From Candidatus Latescibacterota bacterium (GTDB lineage Bacteria > Latescibacterota > 4484-107), in assembly GCA_043804415.1 (NCBI GenBank), contig JAZDJA010000297.1, forward strand, positions 3,911 to 67,910: a DNA stretch of 64,000 nt, in the 5' to 3' direction. Positions 6,893 through 64,000 of the stretch are shown in pieces. Numbering within the stretch: the first letter of the stretch is position 1; each line of letters starts with the position of its first letter. The position numbers and the translations under genes were made by a program. The notes under the pieces were generated by a model. That model was given only the letters and a program-made list of their open reading frames with translations, was not told the origin of the DNA and did no database searches.

Positions 6893-7063
6893 AAGCTTAC
6901 ACTCCCTCTAACCTTCAAATGCCAGATGCTGAAGCGCGATCCCGTTCGCTGCAGAATACCGCGGATGGAGAGGTACCTTATCCGGTTAGATGCCGGATAA
7001 AACCTTCTCCCTTTCCTTTGGGCAATTCCATTGGCAGTCACCGAACGGGGCAAGGGAGAAGGT

Positions 7064-39733: not shown

Positions 39734-40217
39734 AATTTCCTCCAAAATAGGCGGAGATGTTGTCGCAGAGATCATCGTGCGGTCGCAGAGCCGCAACGCA
39801 AGAACGCAATCACCCAGCGGGCAAATTGGGAAGCACGGATTGGGTCTGAAAAACGAGTCTTCGTGGGTTGGGTGGGCAGAGCGTGTGAGAAGAGATCGCG
39901 CTCAATGGTTCCAGTTTCTCGTGCCATGCCGCTGGCCGTTTCCGGTTGAATGCGCATCAGATTCTTGATCTTCTTGGGAAGGAGCACGGTATATGGAAGG
40001 ACTCCGAACGAAACGTAGCCCCTCTTGTGCGGTACAGAAGACTCGGGAAGGGAGGGCGGGCCTTGCCCACAGTCCAGCGCGCGGAAAAGGGGGTACGGCC
40101 TTCGACGCCGGCACGCATCTCAGGGATCGGATGAGGAAAGGGTGCTCCGATGTCCTCGCGGGAGTTCCCACCCCATTCGATGCCGCTTCCTCCCTGCCTT
40201 TGCACGCCCCGTCTCTT

Positions 40218-41294
40218 CTAGGGCTTTTCCGGTGCAGACGGATCGGCCCGGTGAAACCGTTTCCGCACCAGATTGGCTCGCAGGGCATCGCGCCTGGCCG
40301 GATCCAGGTTTTTGCCGGCTCGTTGTTGGAGATGGGAGGGTTGGGTGGTTACCATCAGTTCGTTTAAGATCCGAATGTCCGGTCTGGAGATTATGCCCAT
40401 CGAGACTCCCAGTCGCACGGCGGAAGCAAGGTTCATGAACTCCTGGCTCGTAAGCAGTCTCGCATTTTCCAGGATGCCAAACGCCCTCCAGATTTTGTCC
40501 TCGATCTGGAAACGGGCTTCTCTCATAAGTTTTGCCCGGGCAAGTTCTTCGACGCGAATAAGTTCCAGGCTGACTTTTTTCAGATGGTCGATCGTTTCCT
40601 GCTCGTCTTGGCCGAGTGTTCTCTGGTTGGATATTTGGAACAGGTTTCCGATGATCTCAGAGCCCTCTCCATAGAATCCCCGAGCCACCAAACCCAACTG
40701 AGAAATCCCCCGAAGTGCGGCGTCCTTTTGGCGGGTCAGAACGAGTCCAGGAAGATGAATGAGGACAGAGGCTCTCAATCCCGTTCCCACATTGGTCGGA
40801 CAGGTCGTCAGATAACCCCACTTTTCCGAATAGGCATAGGCCAATGAGTCCGAGAGTTCGTCGTCCATCCGATTCACCAGCTCCCAGGCCTTTTGTGGCG
40901 AGAAGCCCGATTGAATGGTCTGAATCCTCAGATGGTCCTCCTCGTTGATCATGACGCTGCACCGTTCCCGATGCGCCACCAAAACCCCCCGATGCCCGCG
41001 GACCTTTGCCAGTGCGGGGCTGATCAGATGGCGTTCCACCAGAACCTGGCGGGGAATCTTCGGGAGATGGGAGGTGTCAAAAAAAGAAGCCTCTCTCAAG
41101 ATCTCAGAGCGCACCCCGGCCGCCAATACCTCTGCCGAAATCTCCGAAAGCTGGTTCTCCTTCGCCCGATGAACGAACGGAAACGCCCCAAGGTTCCGGG
41201 CCAACCGCACGCGAGTGCTCACTACCAAGTCGGCATGCGAGCCCGTTCCGTCAAGCCATGCGGCCATGTGATGGGAGAGATCTTCCAAGGTCAT
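40218..41294 (-). CDS. mcsB: Protein-arginine kinase McsB (phosphagen-kinase fold)
   Basis: The product begins MTLEDLSHHMAAWL... and contains the active-site motif CPTNVGTGLRASVLIHLPGL (CPxNxGTxxR). Confidence 0.88.
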   Translation of the reverse strand: MTLEDLSHHMAAWLDGTGSHADLVVSTRVRLARNLGAFPFVHRAKENQLSEISAEVLAAGVRSEILREASFFDTSHLPKIPRQVLVERHLISPALAKVRGHRGVLVAHRERCSVMINEEDHLRIQTIQSGFSPQKAWELVNRMDDELSDSLAYAYSEKWGYLTTCPTNVGTGLRASVLIHLPGLVLTRQKDAALRGISQLGLVARGFYGEGSEIIGNLFQISNQRTLGQDEQETIDHLKKVSLELIRVEELARAKLMREARFQIEDKIWRAFGILENARLLTSQEFMNLASAVRLGVSMGIISRPDIRILNELMVTTQPSHLQQRAGKNLDPARRDALRANLVRKRFHRADPSAPEKP

Positions 41295-41340
41295 CGGTGA
41301 CCTTCCGAATCTGGGCAAAGGGAGGACGAGGGATCAGGTC

Positions 41341-41871
41341 TCAGGGCGTATCGTCTCTCAGGATCTCTGATGCCATCGGTTCTTGAGCCATGGCTGCAAT
41401 CCGGTCCCGAAGGCGAGCCGCTTCCTCGAATTCCTCCTGCTGAATAGCCTGTTTGAGTGCGACCCGCATGGTGCCTATTTTCTGGCGCCGCTTCGCCGCA
41501 AAAAGTTGTGCGGCCGGAACTTTTCCGGTGTGGGAGGTGTTCCCGTGAACGTTCTTGAGTATCTGCTCCAGCGGCTCTGCAAAAGCCCGGTAGCACGCTT
41601 CGCATCCCAGTCGTCCCTTTGCCTTAAACTCCGCATAGGACCACCCGCACGAGGGGCACGTTCCTGCGGGCTCTTCCCCCTCCTCGTTTTGGCTCGCGGC
41701 GAGTGCTCCCGCTATCAGACTGTTCACCGAACTCTGGATGGTTTCCAGGGAAATGGTCAGTCCCCGTTTCTCCGCACACGTTTCACAAAGGTGCAGTGCC
41801 GTTTTCTCATTCTTGACAATCTGGGTGAACAGCACCACGGCCGGCTTTTTCCCGCACATTTCACAGGTCAT
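41341..41871 (-). CDS. mcsA: Protein-arginine kinase activator McsA
   Basis: The product has two CxxC...CxxC zinc-finger pairs (CEMCGKKP...CETC, CPSCGW...CEAC) and a UVR motif (QEEFEEAARLRDRI). It lies directly upstream of mcsB-clpC. Confidence 0.85.
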   Translation of the reverse strand: MTCEMCGKKPAVVLFTQIVKNEKTALHLCETCAEKRGLTISLETIQSSVNSLIAGALAASQNEEGEEPAGTCPSCGWSYAEFKAKGRLGCEACYRAFAEPLEQILKNVHGNTSHTGKVPAAQLFAAKRRQKIGTMRVALKQAIQQEEFEEAARLRDRIAAMAQEPMASEILRDDTP

Positions 41872-50462: not shown

Positions 50463-50616
50463 ATCATTCTCCATGCAAGTCACCCAGTGAAAGACAATGA
50501 GGATTCGTGGACAAAGGGCTATATTCCCTATTCGCTGTCTTCTTTTGAGTTCCATGGTGAGGCATCTTTCCCGCCAAACGGTGACAACCATGAAGTTTCC
50601 TTGCACTCGATGTGCC

Positions 50617-50648
50617 AAGCCCAACAGAACTCCTTGTTGGGCTTTCTT
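50617..50648 (+). terminator. Rho-independent terminator after the ABC transporter pair
   Basis: The sequence is AAGCCCAACA-gaactcc-TGTTGGGCTT followed by TTCTTG. That is a perfect 10 bp GC-rich stem with a U-rich tail. Confidence 0.6.
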
Positions 50649-50830
50649 GCGGCAGAATAGAGAATCTCGCCAGCCTCATGCGAAAGCCATGTAGCGGGCG
50701 AAGGTCTTCTGAAATTGTGCGAATAGAACACCAGCAATACTCCTGTGATCCCTGGTCCATCCGATGTCAGATGGCCAAGACCATTCCTGTTCTATGGTGT
50801 CCTATTCCATCTCTTTGTCTCAAGGATAAA

Positions 50831-51520
50831 ATGGAACTGAAAATCAAAGATATTGTCGATCTATTGCAGGTGTCTGAAAAAACGGTATACCGCTGGATCA
50901 AGGAGAAGAAGATTCCCTGTTACCGCATTCATCATCATTACCACTTCAATCGTGCAGAAGTAAATGAGTGGATCATGAGCAATGGGATCGGATTATCGAC
51001 CCAATTGCTGAATCTACCCCTGACTGGAAGGCCGACCCATCTTACTGACCTGCTCCTGCATGGCGGAGTCTACACGGGTATTACCGGAAATACGATTCGG
51101 GATGTTCTGCACAACGCCATCGAATCCATTGATACCCCTCAGGATATGGATAAGGAAGACATTATTTCAGCATTGCTGAATCGTGAAGAACTGATGTCCA
51201 CGGCCATCGGAAACGGTATAGCCATTCCACATCCCCGTAAGCCGTTGATCACCAATGTCAAGGATGCCAGTGTGTCTATCTGTTTCTTAGCAGAAGGGGT
51301 GAATTTTGGTGCACTGGACGGACATCCGGTACATACGCTATTCCTGCTGTTAACGTGCAGCCCCAGGAGACACCTGGAAGTATTATCCAAAATATCTTAT
51401 CTGTGCCAGATGGATGATTTTCGGTCTATGCTTGAACGTCGTGCTTCAGCACAGGAAATAAGTGATTTTGTTCAGGGGAAAGAACGGTCATGGCAGCAGA
51501 AGGAGTTGGCTGAGCGATGA
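50831..51520 (+). CDS. Fusion regulator: N-terminal excisionase/MerR-like HTH plus C-terminal PTS EIIA (PtsN/EIIA-Ntr-like) domain
   Basis: The product begins MELKIKDIVDLLQVSEKTVYRWIKEKKIPCYRIHHHYHFNRAEVNEWI (an HTH_17-like module). The C-terminus contains ...STAIGNGIAIPHPRKPL... (EIIA-2 phospho-histidine loop). Its stop overlaps the next gene start (ATGA at 51517-51520). Confidence 0.75.
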   Translation: MELKIKDIVDLLQVSEKTVYRWIKEKKIPCYRIHHHYHFNRAEVNEWIMSNGIGLSTQLLNLPLTGRPTHLTDLLLHGGVYTGITGNTIRDVLHNAIESIDTPQDMDKEDIISALLNREELMSTAIGNGIAIPHPRKPLITNVKDASVSICFLAEGVNFGALDGHPVHTLFLLLTCSPRRHLEVLSKISYLCQMDDFRSMLERRASAQEISDFVQGKERSWQQKELAER

Positions 51521-53493
51521 ATCTACTACTTATTGGGGTTGCCTTATTTTTCGCAGCTGGATTGGTAGCCATCCCTTTGCCACAAAAGAGAAAGGGAATA
51601 GCGTATGTCAGCTTCGCTGCATCAGCGCAGATTTTCATTCTGCCGTTGGTGATAAAGGCATTGTTGGGAAGCCCGACACTGAATTTGTCCGTTCATTTTT
51701 CCGGACCCATTGGAGATGTAACTCTGCTACTGGATCCACTTGCTGCTTTCTTCATGTTTTTCATCTCGCTCGGCGGATTGCTTGCTGGTATCTATTCGCT
51801 CGGCTATATGAAAATGTATCAAGATAGTGATCGTCATTCTCTTTCCACTTATTACTTTTTCATGGGCTTGTTGGTTGTTGCCATGCTTCTCGTTGTCATC
51901 GTACAGAATGCCCTGTTCTTTTTGATCGTCTGGGAAATCATGTCACTGGCATCCTTCTTTCTGGTCAGTTTTGAACACCAGAAAGAAGAAGTGCGAAAAG
52001 CAGGACTCTATTATCTGATCGCCATGCAAATTGGCGCAGCAGCGCTGCTTGTTGCTTTCGGCTGGAGCACTGTATTGACTGGCAGCATGGATTTTGGTGC
52101 ACTATCCACACTGAGTCCGGCAGCAGCCACGTTTGTTTTCATTTTGTTCTTTATCGGTTTTGGCACTAAAGCTGGTTTTGTTCCCCTGCATACCTGGCTC
52201 CCGCTGGCACATCCGGCGGCGCCGACTGCTGTGTCTGCCATGATGTCCGGCGTGATGATCAAAACTGGAATTTACGGCATTTTGCGGATCATTTTGATCA
52301 TCGGTGTTCCCAGCCCTTGGCTCGCGTATCTGGTTTTTGGAATTGCGCTGCTTTCCGGTCTTCTGGGAGTCATACACGCCATAGCTCAACACGATTTGAA
52401 GAAGCTACTTGCCTACCATAGCATCGAAAATATCGGCATTATTGGTTTGGGGATTGGCGTGGGCATGCTGGGAATAATAAGTGGGCGAGCACTCATTGCG
52501 GTCGCAGGTTTCCTGGGCGCGCTGTTGCATGTATTCAATCATTTTACGTTCAAAAGTTTGCTCTTCTATGGAGCCGGAATAATCTACTCAAAAACGCACA
52601 CGCGAAATATCGATCAATTGGGCGGATTGGTTCGCGTTCTGCCTTACACGGCCGCGCTTTTTCTGATTGGCTCACTGGCCATCAGCGGGCTTCCACTCCT
52701 AAGCGGTTTTGTCAGCGAATTTGCCGTCTATTTCGGAATGGCTCAGAGCCTGTCTGAGCATAATATATATCTTAATGTGACAGCTGGAATCGGCCTTGCT
52801 GGACTGGCTCTTATCGGTACCATGGCTGCATTATGTTTCACCAAAGTGTTCAGCATATGCTTTCTTGGCAATCCACGAACGAGTTGGCAGGGCACCCCTT
52901 CCGAAGCTTCATCGACCATGCTGGCGCCCATGATTGTACTGGCGAGTTTCATAGTTTTCATCGGGTTGTTCACCCCGCTGATCCTTCCATTTCTCTCCGG
53001 GGTGGTGAAGCAATTCTGTCATGAATCTTTCTATCCCGCATGGAATGAAATTCTGGATATCTTTCTGGAGATCAATGGTGCGCTATTGATTTTCGGGGGA
53101 CTCATTCTATTCTTTATAGGATTGCGCTGGATGTTGTTACGTAACAAAACGGTCGCTCTATTCAAAACATGGGATTGTGGTTACCAGGCTCAAAGCAGCC
53201 GCATTCAATATACTGCCAGCTCATTTGCCTGCTCCTTTCTGAGGTTGGCGGCCAACATAGTGCCGCAGAAGAAGCATATCGTTCGTCCGCAGGGGTTGTT
53301 TCCGACACAGGCGCTCTATGAGAGCCATAGCGACGACCTGATTGCGCGCTGGATGATTCGACCGCTTGTCGGCCTGTTACACTATTTTCTCGGGCTGCTA
53401 TCGTGGATTCAGAGCGGACATACCCAACAATACATTCTTTATGGTCTGGTCTTTCTGGTTATGCTCGTCATCTGGGTTATCGGAGTCCGCTAA
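51517..53493 (+). CDS. NuoL/MnhA-type antiporter-like membrane subunit (HyfB/HycC-like)
   Basis: The 658 aa polytopic product contains the motif HTWLPLAHPAAPTAVSAMMSGVMIKTGIYG, shared by complex I NuoL/M/N and hydrogenase-3/4 membrane subunits. Confidence 0.8.
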   Translation: MNLLLIGVALFFAAGLVAIPLPQKRKGIAYVSFAASAQIFILPLVIKALLGSPTLNLSVHFSGPIGDVTLLLDPLAAFFMFFISLGGLLAGIYSLGYMKMYQDSDRHSLSTYYFFMGLLVVAMLLVVIVQNALFFLIVWEIMSLASFFLVSFEHQKEEVRKAGLYYLIAMQIGAAALLVAFGWSTVLTGSMDFGALSTLSPAAATFVFILFFIGFGTKAGFVPLHTWLPLAHPAAPTAVSAMMSGVMIKTGIYGILRIILIIGVPSPWLAYLVFGIALLSGLLGVIHAIAQHDLKKLLAYHSIENIGIIGLGIGVGMLGIISGRALIAVAGFLGALLHVFNHFTFKSLLFYGAGIIYSKTHTRNIDQLGGLVRVLPYTAALFLIGSLAISGLPLLSGFVSEFAVYFGMAQSLSEHNIYLNVTAGIGLAGLALIGTMAALCFTKVFSICFLGNPRTSWQGTPSEASSTMLAPMIVLASFIVFIGLFTPLILPFLSGVVKQFCHESFYPAWNEILDIFLEINGALLIFGGLILFFIGLRWMLLRNKTVALFKTWDCGYQAQSSRIQYTASSFACSFLRLAANIVPQKKHIVRPQGLFPTQALYESHSDDLIARWMIRPLVGLLHYFLGLLSWIQSGHTQQYILYGLVFLVMLVIWVIGVR

Positions 53494-54410
53494 TGCAAAA
53501 AGGAATCTGTCTACTCATCATCTTGATGGTCCCGTTTGTCTTTACAGGCCTGATAAACCGGGTAAAAGCGCTTTGGGCGGGACGCAGAGGCGCTCCATTG
53601 TGGCAGCCATTCTACGATTTCAGGAAACTGCTGAGAAAAGGGGACGTGCTCAGCAAAACAACCTCATTTGTGTTTCGCCTCAGTCCGTCACTGAATATTG
53701 CAGCCGTTATTTTTGTCGCCCTGATCATCCCATTGCCACAGCAAAAAGCCATAATCAGCTTTCCCGCTGATTTCGTACTGTTCGCTTACACGCTGGGACT
53801 GGCAAGATTCATGCTAGTCCTTTCTGCGATGGATACAGGCAGTCCGTTTGAAGGCATGGGAGCTGCCCGTGAAGTTACCTTCTCCAACATCGTTGAGCCT
53901 GCTTTCTTCGTGCTGATCGGTTCTCTGGCGCTGATTACCGGACAGACTTCATTTGAATCTATTTTTGCGCAACTGAATACCAGCGCCCGCTATACGGTGC
54001 TTGTGAAATCGCTCTGCCTGGCGTCCCTGTTTGTCATGCTGCTAACCGAAGGATCGCGGTCGCCGGTGGACGATCCCAACACCCATCTGGAACTGACCAT
54101 GATTCACGAAGTGATGATCCTCGATTATTCGGGTCCTGATCTGGCATTTATGCAGTATGCCTCCGGTCTGAAAATGGTGGTCATCACCGCCCTGATGGCC
54201 AATCTGTTCGCACCCTCAGGAGTCGGAGCGCTATATGGTATCATGATTTTTCTGATCGTGCTGGCTGGGGTCGCGGTGGCTATAGGATGGGTCGAATCTT
54301 TTTTCGCCAGGCTGAGAATGTCGCATGTTCCCCAGTTTATTTTTATGATGGTGGCCTTGTCGGTAACTCTCTTTGCCGTAGTAATATTTTTTCTGTACGG
54401 AGGGAATTAA
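53493..54410 (+). CDS. NuoH/HycD-like membrane subunit (formate hydrogenlyase subunit 4-like)
   Basis: From the ATG at 53493 (a TAATG overlap with the upstream gene) the product contains RRGAPLWQPFYDFRKLL and LDTGSPFEGMGAAREV, matching the HycD/NuoH signature regions. It is 305 aa. Confidence 0.8.
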   Translation: MQKGICLLIILMVPFVFTGLINRVKALWAGRRGAPLWQPFYDFRKLLRKGDVLSKTTSFVFRLSPSLNIAAVIFVALIIPLPQQKAIISFPADFVLFAYTLGLARFMLVLSAMDTGSPFEGMGAAREVTFSNIVEPAFFVLIGSLALITGQTSFESIFAQLNTSARYTVLVKSLCLASLFVMLLTEGSRSPVDDPNTHLELTMIHEVMILDYSGPDLAFMQYASGLKMVVITALMANLFAPSGVGALYGIMIFLIVLAGVAVAIGWVESFFARLRMSHVPQFIFMMVALSVTLFAVVIFFLYGGN

Positions 54411-55045
54411 TGGCTGACGTTGTGATCATTCTGCTTGGTACCGGTATGTTTTATGTTTTCGCAGCCAGCCGTATTGAAGCCTTCATTAAGACACTGGCAT
54501 TACAGGGGATGCTACTATTTCTGCTTGTCATTATCGATCTTCGCGAAATCAACTGGCTCAACATCGCTTTTTTGGTTTTGGAAACGCTGGTCATCAAATC
54601 AACGGTGATTCCCTTGTTTCTGTTGAATGCGATTCGTCGTAACGAGATCGACCGTGAAGTGGAGCCGTATGTATCGCAGTTCTATTCGCTGATGATCGGC
54701 AGTATCATTTTTATTTTCGGATTTGTCGTCGCTTTCTGGGCTGCTCGCGTGGAACCAGGCATACATCCGCTCTATTTTGGTGTGTCTATAGCGCTGATCA
54801 TTGCCAGTCTGTTTCTTATTGTTACCCGCAAACGCATTATCACCCATATTCTCTGCTTCATGATGCTGGAGAACGGGATCTTTCTGCTATCCCTATCCGT
54901 TGCCCATGAGATGCCTATGCTGGTTAATCTGGGTGTATTGCTTGACCTCTTTGTAGGCCTATTCCTGTTGGTGATCTTTTTCAACAAAATACAATTGATG
55001 TTTGATGGCAGCCATATCGATGTATTGACTCAATTGAAGGATTGA
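54410..55045 (+). CDS. HyfE-like small polytopic membrane subunit
   Basis: The ATG at 54410 overlaps the upstream stop (TAATG). The product is about 211 aa with six transmembrane segments. Its position and size match hydrogenase-4 component E. Confidence 0.6.
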   Translation: MADVVIILLGTGMFYVFAASRIEAFIKTLALQGMLLFLLVIIDLREINWLNIAFLVLETLVIKSTVIPLFLLNAIRRNEIDREVEPYVSQFYSLMIGSIIFIFGFVVAFWAARVEPGIHPLYFGVSIALIIASLFLIVTRKRIITHILCFMMLENGIFLLSLSVAHEMPMLVNLGVLLDLFVGLFLLVIFFNKIQLMFDGSHIDVLTQLKD

Positions 55046-55047
55046 AC

Positions 55048-56478
55048 ATGTTCATTCTGATGCTATTTGCACCCGTTGTTTTGGCTGCGCTCGTCATGTT
55101 CTGGCAGAACCGGTTTGTGATTCGTCTTTCACTTCTGGCCGCCGCCGCTCTCTACCTTCTTGCGGCTTTCGGCTGGGGGTTCGACTTCATTCACAAGGAG
55201 GTGGATGGTTGGCTGTCCAATTATTTTCAGATTGATGCCATTGGTCTTTTCTTTCTGACCATTATGGCGCTGGTATTCGCCGGAACGGCCATTTACAGCC
55301 TGTTCTTCTTTAAGGAGACCGGTACAGGTGTTCCTCAGGAAGCGCGCTACGTAGCTTCTATGCTCCTATTTGTGGATGCTATGGCGGGGGTCATATTAGC
55401 CAGCCATCTGGGGCTATTGTGGGTTTTTGTGGAAGCGACAACCCTGACCAGCGCCGTGCTGATCTATTTTGAAAAGAAAAAATCATCCTTGGAAGCGGCC
55501 TGGAAATACGTGTTTATCTGCTCAGTGGGTATAGCCATGGCCTTTGTTGGGATCATCATTTTGTCAATGGGCAGCAGAAGCATCGGCACACTCTTTTTCA
55601 CCGATCTGTATCAACGTGCCTACGAAATCAATCCATTTTGGCTTAAAATGGCATTTGCCTTTATTCTGGTCGGCTTTGGCACCAAAGTCGGTATAGCGCC
55701 GATTCATGCCTGGCTGCCAGACGCCCATTCCGAGGCTCCTTCCCCAGTATCCGCTTTGCTTTCAGGCACTCTGCTGAACACCGCTTTTCTGGGTTTAATA
55801 CGCGTGCAGGAGATCATGATTCAGGCTAGACTCGATTCCTTTTCAAATCTGCTATTGCTCATTACCGGATTTCTATCATTATTGATCAGCGCTGTATTTA
55901 TGCTGGGTACCGTCAATTACAAGCGGATGCTGGCCTATTCCTCCATTGAGAACATGGGGATTCTGTTTATCGGCATTGCCATGGGTAAGACGGGCATCTA
56001 TGCCGCCATGCTCCACACGGTGGCGCACTCGCTCTCCAAGTCATCCCTGTTTCTCACATCGGGGAATATTCTGCACCTGTATGGAAGCAAAAAAATTTCT
56101 GATGTGAAAGGGCTGCTGCATCGGGAACCGCTTACTGGTTGGCTCTGGATCGTATCTTTGCTGGCGATTATCGGACTGCCACCGTTTCCATCATTTCTGA
56201 GTAAATTTCTATTGATCACAGCTTTTTTCGAAGCGGGTCAGGGCTGGTTGGCTGTTCCCTTCTTTCTGTTTGTCGCAGTGATTATCTATGGCATGGGGGG
56301 AGCAATATTCCGCATGTCATTCGGTGATCTTCCGCCAGGAACCTGCCTTTCCCCAAAACTGGGCCTGAGCGCCTACATCCCCCAGGTGGTCTTTTTGTTG
56401 GGGTTGGCAGCGATTGGAATCTATATACCGGAACGGGCCCTGGCATTTATTCAGAGCGCCGCCGGATTCTTGAAGTAG
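55048..56478 (+). CDS. NuoN/M-type antiporter-like membrane subunit (HyfF/HyfD-like)
   Basis: The product contains the motif IHAWLPDAHSEAPSPVSALLSGTLLNTAFLGLIR. It is about 476 aa. Its start is adjacent to the upstream TGA. Confidence 0.8.
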   Translation: MFILMLFAPVVLAALVMFWQNRFVIRLSLLAAAALYLLAAFGWGFDFIHKEVDGWLSNYFQIDAIGLFFLTIMALVFAGTAIYSLFFFKETGTGVPQEARYVASMLLFVDAMAGVILASHLGLLWVFVEATTLTSAVLIYFEKKKSSLEAAWKYVFICSVGIAMAFVGIIILSMGSRSIGTLFFTDLYQRAYEINPFWLKMAFAFILVGFGTKVGIAPIHAWLPDAHSEAPSPVSALLSGTLLNTAFLGLIRVQEIMIQARLDSFSNLLLLITGFLSLLISAVFMLGTVNYKRMLAYSSIENMGILFIGIAMGKTGIYAAMLHTVAHSLSKSSLFLTSGNILHLYGSKKISDVKGLLHREPLTGWLWIVSLLAIIGLPPFPSFLSKFLLITAFFEAGQGWLAVPFFLFVAVIIYGMGGAIFRMSFGDLPPGTCLSPKLGLSAYIPQVVFLLGLAAIGIYIPERALAFIQSAAGFLK

Positions 56479-56487
56479 AGGAATAAT

Positions 56488-57978
56488 GTGGTGAATTGGA
56501 CTGAAACAAATAATTTGCAGGCCGTGGATCTGGCGGACATCCCACAACTGCCGATTGATTCATTCCGTTCTCAAATTTTGGAAAGTCTTGCTGCCAAACG
56601 GCGATGTGTACAATTCTTCGGGGATGAGGAGGGAGACAAGGTAATCGTCTACGCAGTGCTGGCTGATCACCATCTTTCCCGACTGTATGTCGCTGCCACT
56701 GTTTTTGACAACGAAAAGAAATATCCCTCGCTTACGCCTCAGGCGCCGTCCATGCACCTGTTCGAACGGGAATTGTTTGAGCAGGTCGAAATCGAACCAC
56801 TAGGACATCCCTGGCTAAAGCCGGTGCGCAAGGGAATTGCCGGTATCCGTGCCACTGAAACGCCCTATCCGTTTTTCCAGATGGATGGTGAGGAGACCCA
56901 TGAGGTGGGTGTGGGACCCATCCACGCCGGCGTCATCGAGCCCGGACATTTTCGCTTTTCCTGTCACGGTGAGGAAGTCTATCATCTTGAAATTGAGCTG
57001 GGATTTGGACACCGCGGCGTGGAGGATCTATTCATTCGCCACCGCGAACGACCGAGCTGTTTGCTTCACTTAGCCGAATCTATTGCCGGTGATACGGTCA
57101 TTGGTCATGGCGGCGCCTTTGTCAGAGCGATGGAATCGTTAAGCGGGATTTCGGTTTCCCGTCGGGCTATGATCGTTCGTACTGTTGCCCTGGAATTGGA
57201 GCGTGTCGGCGTTCATCTCGGCGATCTGTCTGCATTGGCGGGTGACGTGGCGTATCTCACCGGCAATGCGATCTTCGGCGCGCTGCGCACCCGTGCGATC
57301 AATACCAGTATGGCTGTCTGTGGAAGCCGTTTCGGGCGTGGTTTGCTCGCCATCGGTGGAATTCGTTTTGATATTTCCAATGAGCTGAGAAAGACCATTG
57401 AAACCACGCTGTCGGAAGTTGAGGACCAGGTGGAATTGGCTGGCGCAGTGATGTTTTCATCTGCATCAACCATGGAGCGATTTGAGAAAACAGGCGTCGT
57501 TTCCGAATCGACGGCGATCGAAATCGGGATGGTTGGGCCAGCCGCCCGCGCCAGTGGTCGCGCAATGGACGTGCGTGCAGATTTTCCGTTTGGCCCGTAT
57601 AACCAGTTTCCGGTTCATCCAATCACTTACCATACGGGGGATGTGTTCGCCAGGGCCTATATCCGCTATGTCGAGATCAAACAGTCCCTCCGAATCATAA
57701 GAGAGCAGTTGGCCAACCTCAGTGGTCAAACGCTGAAATCTCAGAAGGCCGCCTTGCAGCCCAATCGTCTGGTCGTTTCATTGGCTGAAGGCTGGAGAGG
57801 GGAAATTGCCCATGTCGCAATTACGAACGCTGATGGCAAATTGAGACGCTACAAGATCAAGGACCCCTCATTCCATAACTGGCTGGCCTTGGCGCTTGCG
57901 GTACGCAATGAAGGAATATCTGATTTCCCATTGTGCAACAAAAGCTTCAATCTGTCCTATTGTGGGTTTGACCTATAA
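56488..57978 (+). CDS. Fused NuoC-NuoD-like 'large subunit' (HycE-like) without the canonical [NiFe]-site cysteines
   Basis: The product contains VGVGPIHAGVIEPGHFRF...GFGHRGVEDL. Where group-4 hydrogenases carry E-R-x-C-G-x-C-x-x-x-H, the sequence here is ESIAGDTVIGH. The C-terminus ends DFPLCNKSFNLSYCGFDL and lacks a DPCxxC motif. The start is GTG at 56488 or 56491, after a GAGGAA ribosome-binding site. Confidence 0.8.
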   Translation: MVNWTETNNLQAVDLADIPQLPIDSFRSQILESLAAKRRCVQFFGDEEGDKVIVYAVLADHHLSRLYVAATVFDNEKKYPSLTPQAPSMHLFERELFEQVEIEPLGHPWLKPVRKGIAGIRATETPYPFFQMDGEETHEVGVGPIHAGVIEPGHFRFSCHGEEVYHLEIELGFGHRGVEDLFIRHRERPSCLLHLAESIAGDTVIGHGGAFVRAMESLSGISVSRRAMIVRTVALELERVGVHLGDLSALAGDVAYLTGNAIFGALRTRAINTSMAVCGSRFGRGLLAIGGIRFDISNELRKTIETTLSEVEDQVELAGAVMFSSASTMERFEKTGVVSESTAIEIGMVGPAARASGRAMDVRADFPFGPYNQFPVHPITYHTGDVFARAYIRYVEIKQSLRIIREQLANLSGQTLKSQKAALQPNRLVVSLAEGWRGEIAHVAITNADGKLRRYKIKDPSFHNWLALALAVRNEGISDFPLCNKSFNLSYCGFDL

Positions 57979-57996
57979 ACCTATCAGGAACTCGCC

Positions 57997-58782
57997 ATGT
58001 TTGAGTTGCTCAGAGCTCGCAAAAACCACGGCTTTCAGGCTATACGTGATATTGGTAGTGCCCAGTTGCCATCCCCATTTCGTGGTTTCCCGCTGCTGGA
58101 TGAAAAATGCTGCACAAAGGATTGCGGCGCCTGTGCCGAAGTTTGCCCAACTCATGCCATCCAGCTTAAGCCGCTGCAAATAGATTTGGGTCGCTGTATT
58201 TTCTGCGGCGATTGTGTTCACGAATGTCTCTCCGGCGCCATCGAGTTCTCCTCCCAATATCGCTTGGGCAATATGAGCCGCGATGGGCTGGTTATTCCCT
58301 CAGCGCTGACTCCCGAGCACTACCAAGAAGAAGCCATTGTCGCACGGAAGGAAATCAGGCGCCTCTTCGGCCACTCGCTCAAATTGCGTCAGGTTTCTGC
58401 TGGCGGCTGCAACGGGTGCGAGATGGAACTCGCGGCTGCCGGAAATGTTAATTTTGACATGGGGCGATTCGGTTTTGATTTTGTCGCTTCTCCTCGTCAC
58501 GCAGACGGCCTCGTGATCACGGGCCCGATTTCGAGCAATATGGCTCCGGCGCTTGTGGATGCCTACAATAGTGTCAGTCAACCACGACTGGTCATTGTGG
58601 TTGGTGCCTGCGCAATCAGTGGTGGCGTGTTTGTCGAATCTGATCAACTCCATCGCAGCTTTCTGGACAATGTAGCGATCGATCTCTTTATTCCCGGATG
58701 TCCGACACACCCATTGACCTTTATTAATGCCTTACTCGATCTTCTGGATAGAAAGAAGAACAGAACAGCCAGAACCTCCTGA
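57997..58782 (+). CDS. Fused 2x[4Fe-4S] ferredoxin (HycF/NuoI-like) plus NuoB/HycG-like small subunit
   Basis: The N-terminus carries CCTKDCGACAEVCP...CIFCGDCVHEC, which is two CxxCxxCxxxC(P) ferredoxin motifs. The C-terminus carries SAGGCNGCEMEL...VVGACAISGG...IPGCPTHP (the NuoB cluster-N2-type cysteine pattern). Confidence 0.8.
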   Translation: MFELLRARKNHGFQAIRDIGSAQLPSPFRGFPLLDEKCCTKDCGACAEVCPTHAIQLKPLQIDLGRCIFCGDCVHECLSGAIEFSSQYRLGNMSRDGLVIPSALTPEHYQEEAIVARKEIRRLFGHSLKLRQVSAGGCNGCEMELAAAGNVNFDMGRFGFDFVASPRHADGLVITGPISSNMAPALVDAYNSVSQPRLVIVVGACAISGGVFVESDQLHRSFLDNVAIDLFIPGCPTHPLTFINALLDLLDRKKNRTARTS

Positions 58783-58919
58783 AAAGGGAACAAAATAGCG
58801 GGCGGGATCTGCCTCTGAAAATATGCGGATTCCGCATAAAGGATAATTGTATGATTCCACATTCATTCTCAGTGTGGCAGATACCGAGTTGTCCTTCGCT
58901 CGCATAAACGGAGGCCAGG

Positions 58920-59369
58920 ATGCGTGTTGTGGTTCAGCGGGTCAAGCGCGCCGCCCTGCGGATCGAAGGGCAGATGCACGCGGAGATCGAAGAAGGATTG
59001 GTGCTTTTGATCGGGATCGGTCGTGGTGATACGGATGAGGATGCGGAATATGTGGCCGGGAAGTGCGCGGGGCTTCGGATTTTCGGGGACGAGTCCGGGA
59101 AGATGAGCTATACGGTCTCGGATGTCGGAGGCGAGATACTGGCCATCTCCCAGTTCACCCTATGCGGAGATACCCGAAAGGGGAAGCGGCCGAGCTTCAC
59201 GGAGGCTGCCCGTCCCGAGCATGCGGAGCCGTTGTATGAACGATTCCTGGCCGTGTTGCGGGGGCACGGATTGGACGTCCGAACGGGCGTTTTCGGAGCG
59301 CACATGGTGGTGGAGATTCTAAACGACGGGCCGGTGACCTTGATCGTGGAAGGAAGGCCGATTCAGTGA
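58920..59369 (+). CDS. dtd: D-aminoacyl-tRNA deacylase
   Basis: The product begins MRVVVQRVKRAALRIEG... and contains SQFTLCGDTRKGKRPSF and NDGPVT, aligning with E. coli Dtd. An ACGGAGG ribosome-binding site is present. Confidence 0.9.
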   Translation: MRVVVQRVKRAALRIEGQMHAEIEEGLVLLIGIGRGDTDEDAEYVAGKCAGLRIFGDESGKMSYTVSDVGGEILAISQFTLCGDTRKGKRPSFTEAARPEHAEPLYERFLAVLRGHGLDVRTGVFGAHMVVEILNDGPVTLIVEGRPIQ

Positions 59370-59556
59370 AGAGGGCTATTTTGGCAGGAAAAGTCACTGA
59401 ATGGCGTTTCTTGTGGCGCAATAATGCCACATGGGCAGTCTGATACTGGGTGTTGTTCGCAGTTGAAGAGGGATGGTCGGCGATCATTTTTCACGAGAAA
59501 GCCATTTAGAAAAGAAACAATAGATTGTAGTTACTGGCATCGACTTCTTTGTGGAT

Positions 59557-59572
59557 TGGCACGGGTTTTGCA
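59557..59572 (+). promoter_or_regulatory. Sigma-54 (RpoN) -24/-12 promoter upstream of hsp20
   Basis: The sequence is TGGCAC-gggtt-TTGCA. GG and GC are 12 nt apart, a perfect match to the YTGGCACG-N4-TTGCW consensus. It lies about 75 nt upstream of the hsp20 ATG. Confidence 0.6.
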
Positions 59573-59646
59573 TCAGGTAACAGGCAAGCGTGAAAACCAC
59601 GCAGGTGAATCCGTAACCATAAACACAAAGAAAGGAGGTGTCCATC

Positions 59647-60090
59647 ATGTCACTGGTGAAATGGAGCCCCAGAGGAAATCTCGACGTTCGGGATGAGATC
59701 AACCGGTTGTTCGGCAACTTCCTTCCTGATTTTTCGTGGGGAGGGGAGGCAATGGAAGGCTCGTGGGTACCGAAGGTGGATATTTCGGAGACCAACGGAG
59801 ATTTGGAGGTCGCTGCCGAGCTTCCCGGCTTGAGACGCGACGATCTCTCGATCCGTATCGAGAACAACGTGCTGACCCTAAAGGGGAAGAAACAGCGCGA
59901 AGAGAAAAAGGAAGGGGCGAATTACTATCGGGTAGAGCGTTGTTGTGGGGACTTCACCCGGTCGTTCGCGCTTCCGAGCGCGGTAGATACAGGCAAGACG
60001 AAGGCTACCTTCAAAGATGGGGTGTTGACCATCGTGCTTCCGAAGACGGAGGAGGCGAAGGGAAAGGAGATCCCGATCGTCGTGGAATAG
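59647..60090 (+). CDS. Small heat-shock protein (Hsp20/alpha-crystallin family)
   Basis: The ATG at 59647 has AAAGGAGG 8 nt upstream. The alpha-crystallin domain is recognisable (ELPGLRRDDLSIRIENNVLTLKGKK...GVLTIVLPK). Confidence 0.88.
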   Translation: MSLVKWSPRGNLDVRDEINRLFGNFLPDFSWGGEAMEGSWVPKVDISETNGDLEVAAELPGLRRDDLSIRIENNVLTLKGKKQREEKKEGANYYRVERCCGDFTRSFALPSAVDTGKTKATFKDGVLTIVLPKTEEAKGKEIPIVVE

Positions 60091-60102
60091 GCAGGGACTG
60101 AG

Positions 60103-60143
60103 CATTGGGGACCGGTGGTGTGACGGTCCCCAATGCTTTTCTT
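60103..60143 (+). terminator. Rho-independent terminator of hsp20
   Basis: The sequence is CATTGGGGACCG-gtggtgtga-CGGTCCCCAATG followed by CTTTTCTT. That is a perfect 12 bp stem with a U-rich tail, 13 nt after the stop. Confidence 0.75.
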
Positions 60144-60543
60144 GAGGACCAGAGGGGTGAACACGAGTTTTGGGCGAGCGGAGTCTATTTCGATCGCCCT
60201 TTTTTTGTTTGTTCTTTCCACGGAGGGATGTCTCCGGAACGATGGCACCAAGGCTGCGGGGTGTTAGGTTGGCATGTCCATTCTGGCGAACCGTCGATTG
60301 CACTGTCGCCCTCTCGCCCTTTTCGGTCTTTTCATTTTGATCAGCCCGGGCACAAAGAGAAAGATGGAACAAATGTGCCGTAAGGGTCGTATAATGAGGC
60401 ACTGCGAACTGAACGGAAGTTTGGAAGCCCGAATCCCAATCCGACTCATCAAGACCAGGAAGGAGTCGGCATCGCCTTCCAGGAGAGGGTTCGGAGTGGG
60501 CGGCTGGTCCCTCATCATCATACTTAAAGGAAGGAGCTCTGCT

Positions 60544-62043
60544 ATGACACGATCCATGAAAATCCTCCCGATGGTCTTCCTGTTGCTGGTCCTTGGCGTT
60601 TTTCTGTCTGCGGAGGTGGGATGGCTTGGTGAGGGACAAGCCGTTGCTGCCGAGAAGACAGCGGCTCTGGGATCCAATGAGGAAATCCCGGAGGCGATCC
60701 ATGCACTACAGAACACGGGTAAGGCGTTTGTGGCCATCGGAAAGAGCGTCAAACCTGCGGTGGTGGCCATTGAGACCAAGACCCAGGTTGAGCAACCGAA
60801 AGCTCAAGAGAGGCTTCGTACGCCTTTTGACGACTTTTTCGGCGGCGACCTTCGGCGACATTTCTCGCCCTTTCCTGAGGGACCGAGAAAAGGCCTCGGG
60901 TCCGGGGTGATCGTCAGGAAAGAGGGCTATATTCTGACCAACAATCACGTGATCCAGGGCGCGGATAAAATCAGCGTTTCCCTTTCGGACGGCAGGAAGT
61001 TCGAGGCGGAGGTTATTGGAAAGGACAAGCTGACCGATCTGGCGGTGATCAAGATCGACGGCGAGGATCTGTCGGTGATTCGGTTCGGGGATTCGGATGC
61101 GTTGGAAGTCGGAGAATGGGTGCTGGCGTTTGGAAATCCCTTCGAGCAGTATAATACCATGACCCAAGGCATTGTCAGCGCAAAAGGCAGGGAGCATCTC
61201 AACTTCGGGAGCACCACCCCCACCTACCAAAATTTCATCCAGACCACTGCCTTTATCAATCCCGGAAACAGCGGAGGGGCCCTCGTCAATTTGAAGGGGG
61301 AACTGGTGGGCATTAATGCGGCCATCCAATCCACGAACGGCGGGTTCATGGGCATCGGGTTCGCCATTCCGGTCAATATGGCGCAGAGCGTGATGGAGGA
61401 CCTAATAGGCAAGGGGCGAGTTGTTCGGGGATATCTCGGTGTGAATATCAGTGAAGTTGATGCCGATATGGCAGACGCGTTGAAACTGGATGAACCCCAT
61501 GGTGCGATGGTTCAGGAGGTAATGGAGGACGAGGGCGCCCAGCAGGCGGGCATGCAGGCCGGCGATGTGATCCTGGAGGTAAACGGGGAACGTATCGAGA
61601 ATACCAGTCACCTGCAGCGCACTATCGCACAGCAGGATCCTGGAAAACGAGTGGAACTGACCGTGTGGCGGGACGGCTCGAAGAAGAAGCTTCGTGTCCA
61701 GCTGGGAGAGCGCCCCGATGCGGAGCAGATGGCAGTGCACAAAGAGGAAGAGGACAGCAAATTGGGTGTTCAGGTGCAGGCACTGACCGAAGATATGGGG
61801 AGTCAACTAGGCTATCAGGACGAAAAGGGTGTGGTGGTCTCCTGGGTGGATCCGAACGGGCCGGCGGCGGAGAAGGGTATTCGGCGGGGCGATTTGATTC
61901 AGCAGATCGGGCGACGGAAGATCGCCTCGACCAAGGAGTATGACAAGGCGATGAAGGAACTTATCGCAGGTCAGGCGGTCATGATTTTGGTCAAACGCCA
62001 GGAAAGCGTGTTTTTTGTAGCCATCAAAATCCCGAAGGAGTAG
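60544..62043 (+). CDS. htrA: Periplasmic serine endoprotease DegP/HtrA (two PDZ domains)
   Basis: The ATG at 60544 has an AAAGGAAGGAG ribosome-binding site. The product has a signal peptide, the catalytic triad context (TNNHV, DLAVIKI, GNSGGAL) and two PDZ domains. The ORF-track N-terminal extension from 60274 is not supported. Confidence 0.9.
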   Translation: MTRSMKILPMVFLLLVLGVFLSAEVGWLGEGQAVAAEKTAALGSNEEIPEAIHALQNTGKAFVAIGKSVKPAVVAIETKTQVEQPKAQERLRTPFDDFFGGDLRRHFSPFPEGPRKGLGSGVIVRKEGYILTNNHVIQGADKISVSLSDGRKFEAEVIGKDKLTDLAVIKIDGEDLSVIRFGDSDALEVGEWVLAFGNPFEQYNTMTQGIVSAKGREHLNFGSTTPTYQNFIQTTAFINPGNSGGALVNLKGELVGINAAIQSTNGGFMGIGFAIPVNMAQSVMEDLIGKGRVVRGYLGVNISEVDADMADALKLDEPHGAMVQEVMEDEGAQQAGMQAGDVILEVNGERIENTSHLQRTIAQQDPGKRVELTVWRDGSKKKLRVQLGERPDAEQMAVHKEEEDSKLGVQVQALTEDMGSQLGYQDEKGVVVSWVDPNGPAAEKGIRRGDLIQQIGRRKIASTKEYDKAMKELIAGQAVMILVKRQESVFFVAIKIPKE

Positions 62044-62107
62044 CGAACTCGCTGATCAACTGCGGCCACCGCTCGGCTGAGGTCCCGCTCCGTCCGAGAA
62101 TCATCGA

Positions 62108-62170
62108 ACACCGAAGGCTAGCGAACAAGCTGAATCTGGGCTTTTTCTGCGACCTTCGGTGTTTCTTTTG
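62108..62170 (+). terminator. Candidate intrinsic terminator after htrA
   Basis: The sequence is ACACCGAAGG...(35-nt loop)...CCTTCGGTGT followed by TTCTTTTGGGGG. The loop is unusually long, and inner pairing is possible. Confidence 0.45.
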
Positions 62171-62451
62171 GGGGTTTGACCCAGACCATTGCCCTTCTTC
62201 GGGAGCAGTCGGAGATGTGCTGCCACGGCGGTGTTATGGATTCAATAGAGATGTCGTATTGACGTGATAAATGTCATAGTGGCCGCTCCTCCCTCAATGG
62301 AAGGGCCGGTTTTTGTTTCTGAGAAGGATGATTTGTGTCCCGAGCTCTTTTTACTTAAGGAATAGGAATCATCCGGTGATGTTGAGAGATAAGCGTTTAG
62401 CTCGTTGTGCTGCTAAGGAATAGCAGAGAGTAAGCGAGATGGGTCACTTGT

Positions 62452-62467
62452 TGGCACGTGGTTTGCG
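62452..62467 (+). promoter_or_regulatory. Sigma-54-like -24/-12 element upstream of dnaK
   Basis: The sequence is TGGCAC-gtggt-TTGCG, with GG and GC 12 nt apart. It lies about 95 nt upstream of the dnaK ATG. The -12 element is TTGCG rather than TTGCA/T. Confidence 0.45.
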
Positions 62468-62558
62468 TAGATTTATGCCAAAGGCTGAGCATGCTATCTG
62501 TTTCATATACCTTCTCACTGTATAGGCGCAGGGGGAGCATCCGACAAGGAGTGAAAAA

Positions 62559-64000
62559 ATGGGAAAAGTTATCGGCATTGACTTGGGAACAACGAACTCG
62601 TGTGTCGCGATTATGGAGGGCGGCGATGCCACGGTGATCCCCAATTCGGAAGGCGGACGTACGACACCCTCGGTGGTGGCCTTCACGAAGAGCGGCGAAC
62701 GCCCGGTCGGGGCCGCTGCCAAGCGACAGGCTATCACGAATCCTGAGAAGACTGTGTTCTCGATTAAGCGGTTTATGGGCAGGCGATACAACGAAGTGGT
62801 GCGGGAGATCGAGGAGGTGCCATTCAAGGTTTCGCGAGGGGGAAATGATACCGCGATGGTGGATATTGACGGGAAACATTACTCACCTCCGGAGATCTCC
62901 GCCATGATCCTTCAGAAGATGCGTCAGACCGCAGAGGACTATCTTGGAGAAAAGGTGACGCAGGCGGTGATCACTGTACCAGCCTATTTCAATGACAGCC
63001 AGCGTCAGGCCACGAGGGATGCTGGACAGATTGCTGGTCTGGAGGTGCTTCGGATCATCAATGAGCCTACGGCGGCTTCTTTGGCCTATGGATTGGCCAA
63101 GGAGCAGAAAGAGGAGAAGATCGCGGTCTATGACCTGGGTGGCGGGACATTCGACATCTCGATCCTGGAACTGGGCGATGGGGTATTCGAGGTGAAATCC
63201 ACCAACGGAGACACGCATCTTGGCGGAGATGACTTCGACAAGCGGATCATTGACTGGCTGGCTGATGAATTCCGGACTCAGCAGGGAATCGATCTCAGGA
63301 ACGATCCGATGGCTCTCCAACGCTTGAAGGAAGCGGCGGAGAAGGCCAAGTGTGAATTATCCTCCTCCATGCAGACAGAGATCAACCTTCCGTTTCTCAC
63401 CGCGGATCAATCGGGGCCTAAACATTTGCAGATCACCCTGTCTCGTGCCAAGTTAGAGCAGCTGGTGGACGACCTGATCCAGCGGTCGGTCGGGCCGTGT
63501 CGTCAGGCATTGGCCGATGCGGGAATGAGCGCCGATGACATAGACGAGGTGATTCTCGTCGGTGGTCAGACGCGGATGCCCAAGGTGCAGGAGATCGTGC
63601 GAAACGTCTTTGGAAAGGAGCCGCACAAGGGGGTCAATCCCGACGAGGTGGTGGCGCTCGGAGCGGCGATCCAGGGCGGCGTCCTTTCCGGTGACGTGAC
63701 GGATGTATTGCTTTTGGATGTGACCCCGCTGACTTTGGGGATTGAAACCTTGGGAAGCGTCGCCACGCCGCTGATCGAGCGCAATACGACGATTCCGACC
63801 AGGAAGAGCCAGATATTCAGCACGGCTGCGGACAACCAGACCACCGTGGAGATTCATGTGCTGCAGGGCGAACGGAAGATGGCTGTGGACAATCGGTCGT
63901 TGGGGCGATTTCATCTGGACGGAATTCCGCCTTCGCCCAGAGGCATGCCGCAGATCGAGGTGGCGTTCGATCTGGATGCGAACGGGATCCTGAACGTCTC
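62559..64000 (+). CDS. dnaK: Chaperone DnaK (Hsp70). Only the 5' part is present; the gene continues beyond the window.
   Basis: The ATG at 62559 has an AAGGAG ribosome-binding site. The product begins [22 protein letters not shown]... and contains [14 protein letters not shown] and [14 protein letters not shown]. It is absent from the ORF track because there is no stop in the window. Confidence 0.95.

Follow-up and report, generated by a model that had tools for sequence, protein, structure and literature searches.

A conserved sigma-54 promoter and a candidate enhancer dyad upstream of hsp20 and dnaK in Latescibacterota

Heat-shock control in bacteria is, in the textbook account, exerted by sigma-32 or by the repressors HrcA, HspR and CtsR. 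Stress and heat-shock genes are also activated through sigma-54 by a dedicated enhancer-binding protein (EBP), as in Myxococcus xanthus HsfA/HsfB-lonD and Escherichia coli PspF-PspA, and in the latter case PspA holds its activator PspF inactive until stress. Here we describe a sigma-54-type (-24/-12) promoter and a putative upstream enhancer in front of the small heat-shock protein gene hsp20, in a 64,000-nt stretch of contig JAZDJA010000297.1 from a Candidatus Latescibacterota bacterium (hereafter the window), together with a similar arrangement in front of dnaK. A first-pass annotation of this DNA had proposed that an RpoN (sigma-54) and EBP circuit controls part of the heat-shock genes, with a palindrome upstream of the hsp20 promoter as the activator site. 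The HsfA/HsfB-lonD and PspF-PspA systems differ from this locus in their target genes and their phyla, and neither a two-component kinase nor a PspA-like inhibitor is shown here.

In Flavobacterium psychrophilum, transcription-start mapping has placed sigma-54 promoters in front of groESL, lon, dnaK, grpE-dnaJ, htpG and clpB, and the genome carries three EBP genes, none of which is assigned to these promoters (PMC9723704, Guerin et al. 2021). This regulon (SM4) resembles the Latescibacterota system in its host superphylum (Fibrobacterota-Chlorobiota-Bacteroidota, FCB), in its TGGCACG-N4-TTGC promoters and in the inclusion of dnaK, whereas hsp20 is not in the published promoter selection. Furthermore, starts are mapped in F. 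psychrophilum, whereas the Latescibacterota system is known from sequence alone and has clpC and htrA outside sigma-54. On these features, the Latescibacterota module appears to be the candidate-phylum counterpart of the F. psychrophilum sigma-54 protein-quality-control regulon. For Bacteroidota and Planctomycetota, a cross-phylum survey predicts an enrichment of sigma-54 promoters in front of the genes for GroEL, IbpA-type small heat-shock protein (COG0071), GroES, GrpE, DnaJ and DnaK (PMC12316311, Carrera-Reyna et al. 2025). In its available portions, the survey is promoter-only, gives no upstream activator sites or activator, and does not name Latescibacterota, Zixibacteria or Marinimicrobia; neither an enhancer motif nor an activator is described in PMC9723704 either. 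Our literature search found no paper linking Latescibacteria with sigma-54.

The precedent cited in the first-pass annotation, E. coli ibpB, is genuine: ibpB has a functional sigma-54 promoter bound by the holoenzyme in vivo, and for dnaK of E. coli the source expressly rules out a dependence on sigma-54 (PMC2831329, citing Kuczynska-Wisnik 2001). The ibpB site described there is weak (TGGTAA-N5-TTGCT) and additional to sigma-32 control, whereas the Latescibacterota site has a perfect consensus, the arrangement includes dnaK, and no sigma-32-type promoter was seen in the window.

The upstream dyads described below resemble the multi-site enhancers of the NtrC family, in which two to four dyads lie on one helix face, 100-250 bp upstream of a sigma-54 promoter. 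We take the NorR consensus to be GT-N7-AC and the GlrR (QseF) enhancer to consist of three TGTC-N10-GACA sites. The TGTC half-site of our dyad resembles that of GlrR, and TGTC-N5-GACA formally contains the GT-N7-AC of NorR. The dyad differs from the GlrR site in its half-site spacing (5 rather than 10 nt), and many of its copies depart from the NorR rule by having GGCA in place of GACA; neither regulator acts on related target genes. The NorR enhancer comprises three essential sites, according to the available part of the source (PMC2831303). A literature search for the dyad motif gave PpsR only.

Promoter and upstream dyads of hsp20

To describe the hsp20 locus, we called genes by their Pfam matches, and motifs of hsp20 and dnaK were also read off the sequence. 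The features of the hsp20 upstream region are as follows.

58920-59369, + strand: dtd (D-Tyr-tRNA deacylase), by Pfam
59366-59424, no strand assigned: distal part of the enhancer block, from alignments; the relatives' sites are degenerate here in the window
59412-59431, no strand assigned: inverted repeat TGTGGC-N8-GCCACA of the first-pass annotation, arms 59412-59417 and 59426-59431
59425-59437, no strand assigned: promoter-proximal putative enhancer dyad TGCCACATGGGCA (TGYC-N5-GRCA), centre about -150 from the inferred start
59515-59527, + strand: possible DNA-bending site AAACAATAGATTG, resembling sites of integration host factor (IHF), between enhancer and promoter, centre about -62
59557-59572, + strand: hsp20 sigma-54 (-24/-12) promoter TGGCACGGGTTTTGCA, by exact consensus match and conservation
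59647-60090, + strand: hsp20 (alpha-crystallin-type small heat-shock protein, 147 aa), Pfam HSP20 1.2e-22

The 281-nt intergenic region upstream of hsp20 contains the promoter element TGGCACGGGTTTTGCA, which has no mismatch to TGGCACG-N4-TTGCW. Its GG (59558-59559) and GC (59570-59571) are separated by 10 nt, and its end lies 75 nt before the hsp20 ATG (59647) on the same strand. The element is the sole exact match to this consensus on both strands of the window, where dinucleotide shuffles expect 0.04 (4 of 100 shuffles of the window contain an exact match). Both the exact RpoN consensus at this position and its distance of about 75 nt from the start codon, as claimed in the first-pass annotation, are thus borne out by the sequence and the shuffles. 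From the usual distance of 12 nt past the GC, transcription would start at about 59583.

We gathered orthologous loci by protein search and exact-protein look-ups, which gave hsp20 loci of seven Latescibacterota lineages whose Hsp20 proteins are 68-80% identical to that of the window. In all seven lineages, TGGCACGG(G/C)TTTTGC is found in the corresponding place upstream of hsp20. The promoter has 14 invariant columns of 15 across these lineages, compared with 38 of 186 (20%) in the remaining intergenic DNA (Fisher p = 2e-8). In addition, the element accompanies hsp20 in L013, L014 and L099, where the upstream gene is not dtd. Loss of the motif from orthologous hsp20 upstream regions, which the first-pass annotation had named as grounds for rejection, is not what the alignment shows: the element is almost invariant. 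The hsp20 promoter is confirmed as non-random.

The alignment also shows a conserved block further upstream. The dyad TGCCACATGGGCA aligns with CG[TC]CACATAGGCA at -151 to -153 in all relatives, and the complete block of the relatives reads ATGATGTCAAAACGACAGCGGAAAGCCACAATGAAAGGTCTTATTGACCATAATAACGTCACATAGGCAG. Specifically, the relatives have TGTC-N5-GACA at about -203, GGTC-N5-GACC at about -171 and CGTC-N5-GGCA at about -151, with site starts offset by 32 and 52 bp, which corresponds to three and five turns of the helix. The window keeps degenerate copies of the distal sites, GGGCTATTTTGGCA (59373-59386) and GCGTTTCTTGTGG (59404-59416). In the enhancer block 20 of 70 columns are invariant, versus 4 of 71 in the following 70 nt, and the block, like the promoter, stays with hsp20 in the three loci in which dtd is absent. 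The TGYC-N5-GRCA dyad is most likely the binding unit of a putative EBP.

The palindrome that the first-pass annotation had pointed out, TGTGGC-gcaataat-GCCACA, is present at 59412-59431, 126 nt upstream of the hsp20 promoter and within the conserved block of about 70 bp, and its right arm overlaps the left half of TGCCACATGGGCA. By itself, it is at chance level and specific to the window. The hsp20 intergenic region contains three perfect 6-nt inverted repeats, versus about 2.8 expected by our own estimate (281 positions x 41 spacings x 4^-6), and across the window the repeat is found three times with up to two mismatches, versus 2.7 expected. When the palindrome is followed in register across the seven lineages, 50% of cells pair, as in shuffled controls. 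The proposed role of the palindrome as the activator site is not upheld by this chance-level count and the lack of in-register conservation; the conserved element is the other dyad, TGYC-N5-GRCA. As for recurrence upstream of other RpoN promoters, the literal palindrome does not recur, whereas near-matching dyads do lie upstream of dnaK.

Between the enhancer and the promoter lies a conserved A/T-rich stretch with the core CAA-N4-TT. Every aligned relative keeps ACA-N5-TT here, and the interval 59511-59556 has 15 invariant columns out of 46. The sequence AAACAATAGATTG in this stretch is one mismatch from what we take to be the IHF consensus, WATCAANNNNTTR, and is a plausible candidate for a bending site.

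The dnaK promoter and hsp20 loci of other lineages

The corresponding features upstream of dnaK, at the end of the window, are as follows.

62221-62284, no strand assigned: putative dnaK enhancer with three dyads, conserved in L009/L010 and L012
62221-62233, no strand assigned: dyad TGCCACGGCGGTG, the third and most distal site
62252-62264, no strand assigned: dyad TGTCGTATTGACG, one mismatch from the TGYC-N5-GRCA dyad
62272-62284, no strand assigned: dyad TGTCATAGTGGCC, one mismatch from the TGYC-N5-GRCA dyad, 20 bp from TGTCGTATTGACG
62452-62467, + strand: dnaK sigma-54 promoter TGGCACGTGGTTTGCG, GC at 62465-62466, 93 nt before the ATG at 62559
62559-64000, + strand: dnaK (Hsp70), open at the window end, Pfam HSP70 1.9e-241

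The aligned dnaK promoter sites of the relatives are TGGCGCCGTTTTTGCA (L009/L010) and TGGCATATTTTTTGCA (L012). The dnaK dyads are centred at about -198, -218 and roughly -250. In the window, in L009/L010 and in L012, TGTCGTAYTGAC and TGTCAYARTGGC lie exactly 20 bp apart upstream of dnaK, with the third site about 30 bp further up. The pair has the architecture GTC-N5-GAC-N9-GTC-N5-GGC, matching the two proximal hsp20 sites.

Beyond Latescibacterota, a promoter-blind metagenome scan with an Hsp20 alignment yielded 83 hsp20 loci with enough upstream sequence. We counted as sigma-54-like any site with GG and GC fixed and up to two mismatches within 300 nt upstream of the gene. Such a site is found in 9 of the 83 loci, versus about 0.94 expected from the background of the same loci (Poisson p = 7e-7). 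The nine loci keep TGGCA-N6-TTGC while the spacer varies, which is the signature of sigma-54, and in the other lineages the promoter lies 46-133 nt from the start codon.

The dyad accompanies the promoter. Upstream of the hsp20 genes that have a sigma-54 site, TGYC-N5-GRCA occurs nine times in 2,640 nt (0.06 in shuffles), whereas the upstream regions of hsp20 genes lacking such a site contain a single copy in 23,794 nt. A search that tolerated one mismatch gave 36 dyad sites versus 4.9 +/- 2.2 in shuffles. The preferred centres are near -150 and -109, compared with -203 and -151 in Latescibacterota. Among about 100 loci, all co-occurrences of a sigma-54 site with the dyad are in front of hsp20. 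Dyads upstream of sigma-54-promoted hsp20 genes include TGTCAGAATGACA and TGTCAGTTTGGCA in L026, TGCCATTTTGACA and TGTCATTTTGGCA in L028, TGCCATTATGACA and TGTCAAACTGACA in L033, and TGTCGTTTTGACA in L065.

Several hosts could be named. L065 is from Zixibacteria, as are L021 and L017, whose DnaK proteins are 85-92% identical to those of named metagenome-assembled genomes (MAGs), and L033, whose Hsp20 is very similar to that of L021. L007 is from Marinimicrobia, and L028 is from a lineage with a type IX secretion protein. By our own classification, the identifiable hosts of module loci all belong to the FCB superphylum.

In Zixibacteria, dnaK lies directly 3' of the sigma-54-promoted hsp20, across a short gap without a promoter-like element, so that dnaK stands behind a sigma-54 promoter in either arrangement. 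At these loci (L065 5433-5513, L017 4549-7505, L021 5448-5717), the hsp20-dnaK spacer contains a hairpin without a T-run, which suggests that hsp20-dnaK may be a sigma-54-driven operon with an internal processing or attenuation signal. We also observed tandem copies of hsp20: L017 has two before dnaK, and L010 has a duplication (6001-6444 and 6513-6956) behind a single sigma-54 promoter.

Neighbouring genes and other regulatory elements

The remaining features of the locus are as follows.

59583-59646, + strand: inferred hsp20 5' leader (about 64 nt), Shine-Dalgarno GGAGG at 59634-59638
60102-60143, + strand: hsp20 intrinsic terminator, 13-bp stem GCATTGGGGACCG / CGGTCCCCAATGC followed by TTTTCTT, read from the sequence
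60171-60206, + strand: second hairpin and T-run 3' of hsp20, read from the sequence
about 60544-62043, + strand: htrA/degP (protease), by Pfam

The strong hairpin with its T-run at 60102-60143, and the second one after it, indicate that hsp20 is monocistronic. A simple terminator scanner missed the first hairpin, whose loop exceeds the scanner limit.

We considered whether the hsp20 leader could act as an RNA element. Leader blocks CGAAAGCGGAA and CCGTAACC are conserved in L009, L012, L013, L097 and L099, with no convincing structure. There is no Rfam match at E <= 1 in 58500-63000, the window leader folds with z = -0.06, and the consensus structure is weak at -2.7 kcal/mol. An invariant ACC of the leader could pair with GGU at the Shine-Dalgarno sequence, but covariation is absent from all three of these base pairs. 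The lack of an Rfam match and the single and consensus folds at chance lend no support to an RNA thermometer or other leader RNA (such as ROSE or fourU). In addition, GGTTTT in the promoter spacer (59564-59569) is complementary to AAAACC in the leader (59593-59598); this is probably chance, as the first arm lies upstream of the inferred start.

Scans for other promoter and operator types gave no match. No sigma-70-type match is present on the + strand upstream of hsp20 and dnaK, a weak test given that the housekeeping rules of Latescibacterota may differ, and no sigma-32 element CTTGAA-N11-17-CCCAT is present in the whole window, again a weak test because this consensus is proteobacterial. The CIRCE (controlling inverted repeat of chaperone expression) operator TTAGCACTC-N9-GAGTGCTAA has no match in the window with up to three mismatches.

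The other stress genes of the window lack a sigma-54 site. Before htrA, the sigma-54-like TGGCACCAAGGCTGCG (60243-60258) was rejected, as it has three mismatches and is not conserved. The gene has its own conserved promoter-like element, GGAAC-N17-CGTATAAT (60366-60395), shared with L009 and L012 (GGAAC-N17-(C/A)GTATAA in the relatives), and a leader of about 150 nt running to 60544. This element would be of the sigma-70 family, possibly like those of extracytoplasmic function (ECF) sigma factors such as sigmaE, or else a perfect TATAAT with a weak -35. Before the mcsA-clpC operon, a sigma-54-like site at 42187-42172 (- strand) was rejected, because the GC of the -12 element is absent and the site lies 300 nt from the start codon; no -24/-12 element is present in the mcsA-mcsB-clpC intergenic region. 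As htrA and the clpC operon are without a sigma-54 site, sigma-54 appears to cover part, not all, of the stress genes seen, namely hsp20 and dnaK with their conserved sites; the first-pass annotation had anticipated such partial coverage. The further F. psychrophilum targets groESL, grpE-dnaJ, htpG, lon and clpB are absent from the window.

The mcsA (UVR motif)-mcsB (arginine/guanidino kinase)-clpC operon (37295-41871, - strand) is of a kind known from Firmicutes, and here it shares a genome with the outer-membrane genes BamA, TamB, LpxC and LpxD. The gene that precedes mcsA encodes an ATP-binding cassette (ABC) ATPase and is not ctsR, and the 95-nt gap between them contains no CtsR-like or sigma-54 element.

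In the relatives, a DksA/TraR-type zinc-finger gene lies between htrA and dnaK (L009 8485-8919, L010 9002-9421, L012 5951-6388). The corresponding gap of the window (62044-62220) lacks this gene and holds the htrA terminator (62110-62170), after which the dnaK enhancer follows. Elsewhere in the window, one protein (50612-51520, + strand) combines an HTH_17 DNA-binding domain with a phosphotransferase-system (PTS) EIIA-2 (PtsN-like) domain. Its gene lies directly 5' of an Mrp/complex-I-like group-4 hydrogenase-type cluster (51517-58782), and a sigma-54-like TGGCACATCGAGTGCA with two mismatches is found on the opposite strand at its 5' end (50602-50617, - strand).

A Candidatus Latescibacterota MAG in GenBank encodes a protein 100% identical to Hsp20 of the window, and the window encodes a fused LpxC-FabZ protein (PF03331 and PF07977; 27051-28499, - strand), a fusion that we take to be typical of Bacteroidota and their relatives. 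Together, the identity and the fusion assign the organism, on sequence grounds, to the FCB superphylum.

Proposed mechanism, rival explanations and significance

The presence, conservation and co-occurrence of the promoter and dyad sequences are observed. The reading that we consider probable is that hsp20 is a single-gene sigma-54 unit activated by an upstream EBP at the dyads, in a module shared with dnaK. That sigma-54 uses the promoter, where transcription starts, that an EBP binds the dyads and what signal induces the genes are all inferred. In this scheme, sigma-54 holoenzyme would sit on 59557-59572 in a closed complex and would not open the DNA on its own, so transcription should depend on an EBP of the AAA+ (ATPases associated with diverse cellular activities) class bound 150-200 bp upstream. 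Activator dimers of the NtrC-family type would bind the phased dyads, of which the relatives have three to four copies spaced by whole helical turns (20, 32 and 52 bp), and would assemble into a ring. The activator could then reach the polymerase by DNA looping, perhaps aided by a bending protein at about -62, and would spend ATP to open the promoter. One activator would co-regulate at least hsp20 and dnaK, while htrA and mcsA-mcsB-clpC would use other promoters. We take protein-folding stress as the presumed inducing signal, which might be sensed by a kinase partner, as in Myxococcus HsfA/HsfB, or, by analogy with PspA-PspF, through an activator held by free chaperone.

A number of observations weigh against this reading. 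The window has one full dyad in its hsp20 upstream region, the distal ones being degenerate, and the dyad pattern occurs across the whole window at chance frequency (4 found versus 4.65 expected); the case for an enhancer accordingly comes wholly from the other loci. At those loci, the dyad consensus was fixed after the sequences had been viewed, which inflates the enrichment statistics to some degree, and many of the Latescibacterota loci are related and are not independent observations. The module is not universal: no clear copy of it accompanies hsp20-dnaK in the complete Zixibacteria chromosome CP070839 (L101). In L007 (5872-5927) and L042 (about 4715-4727), a reversed dyad, TGAC-N5-GTCA, replaces TGYC-N5-GRCA, and L007 has this reversed form twice, in copies of identical sequence spaced by 41 bp, whose positions of about -45 and -85 place them only some 20-60 bp before the -24 element. 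Finally, neither rpoN nor an activator gene with PF00158 or GAFTGA was found in the window, where about 40 open reading frames were scanned with Pfam, or within 5-6 kb of any related locus. A GAFTGA/Walker A regular-expression search over the window and about 95 loci gave no activator protein, the single PF00158 match is a weak secondary one inside ClpC, and no EBP gene lies within 10 kb of hsp20-dnaK in CP070839. We assume that this genome has rpoN and EBP genes.

The lack of an activator gene near the loci, which leaves the motif without a tie to an EBP, is also in line with a different reading, in which the sigma-54 promoter is real and the dyads are operators of another regulator, either a repressor or a helix-turn-helix factor like HrcA, HspR or CtsR, with the activator binding elsewhere or acting from solution. 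The composite GTC-N5-GAC-N9-GTC-N5-GGC holds an inverted repeat with a 9-bp spacer and in this respect is CIRCE-like, CIRCE itself having a 9-bp spacer, and the L007 dyads lie close to the promoter for an enhancer. In most lineages, however, the dyads are 100-250 bp upstream and not over the promoter, a position that suits an enhancer and suits a repressor poorly, and they are essentially confined to loci with a sigma-54 site. Moreover, an array of several dyads, spaced by whole turns of the helix, is what EBP sites typically look like, as in the three-site NorR enhancer in the available part of the source (PMC2831303). We consider operators of another regulator unlikely.

Two further readings would remove either the promoter or the palindrome from the scheme. 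The sigma-54 match could be non-productive or due to chance, with hsp20 read from an unrecognised housekeeping promoter. Many E. coli sigma-54 binding sites are indeed intragenic or without known function, according to the available part of the source (PMC4591121), and the negative sigma-70 scan is weak evidence for Latescibacterota. This is very improbable for a site whose exact match is expected 0.04 times per window, which is almost perfectly conserved amid diverging flanks, which has the right position and orientation ahead of hsp20 in several phyla and ahead of dnaK, and which has a transcription-start-mapped precedent in a related phylum. The palindrome at 59412-59431, in turn, could be an RNA hairpin that terminates or stabilises the dtd transcript rather than a protein site: it lies 43 nt past the dtd stop codon and could form a 7-bp stem of -13.7 kcal/mol, and in the relatives a shifted inner repeat, TGAC-N9-GTCA, varies among G-C, G-U and A-U pairs. 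Against this, shuffled sequences fold about as well (z = -1.24 for the window, -0.3 to -0.6 for the relatives), no U-run follows, pairing is not maintained in register, and the block accompanies hsp20 where dtd is missing; we give a dtd hairpin hardly any credence.

Sigma-54-driven chaperone genes are already documented, and their presence here is unsurprising given the Flavobacterium work; what is new is the lead on an enhancer motif and the reach of the arrangement into Latescibacterota and Zixibacteria. Transcription of core chaperone genes in the FCB superphylum appears to rely on sigma-54 and would need an ATP-driven activator, with hsp20 and dnaK as the regulon core in this arrangement. 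A more far-reaching proposal, which we put forward as a tentative possibility, is that one putative EBP acting on dyad arrays is the master regulator of proteostasis in a large part of the FCB superphylum, namely in Latescibacterota, Zixibacteria, Marinimicrobia and possibly Bacteroidota, in place of sigma-32, HrcA, HspR or CtsR, and that free DnaK or Hsp20 may hold it inactive as long as they are not titrated by unfolded proteins. With a candidate enhancer motif at defined positions, the activator can be sought directly, and the regulon can be predicted in genomes of unculturable organisms.

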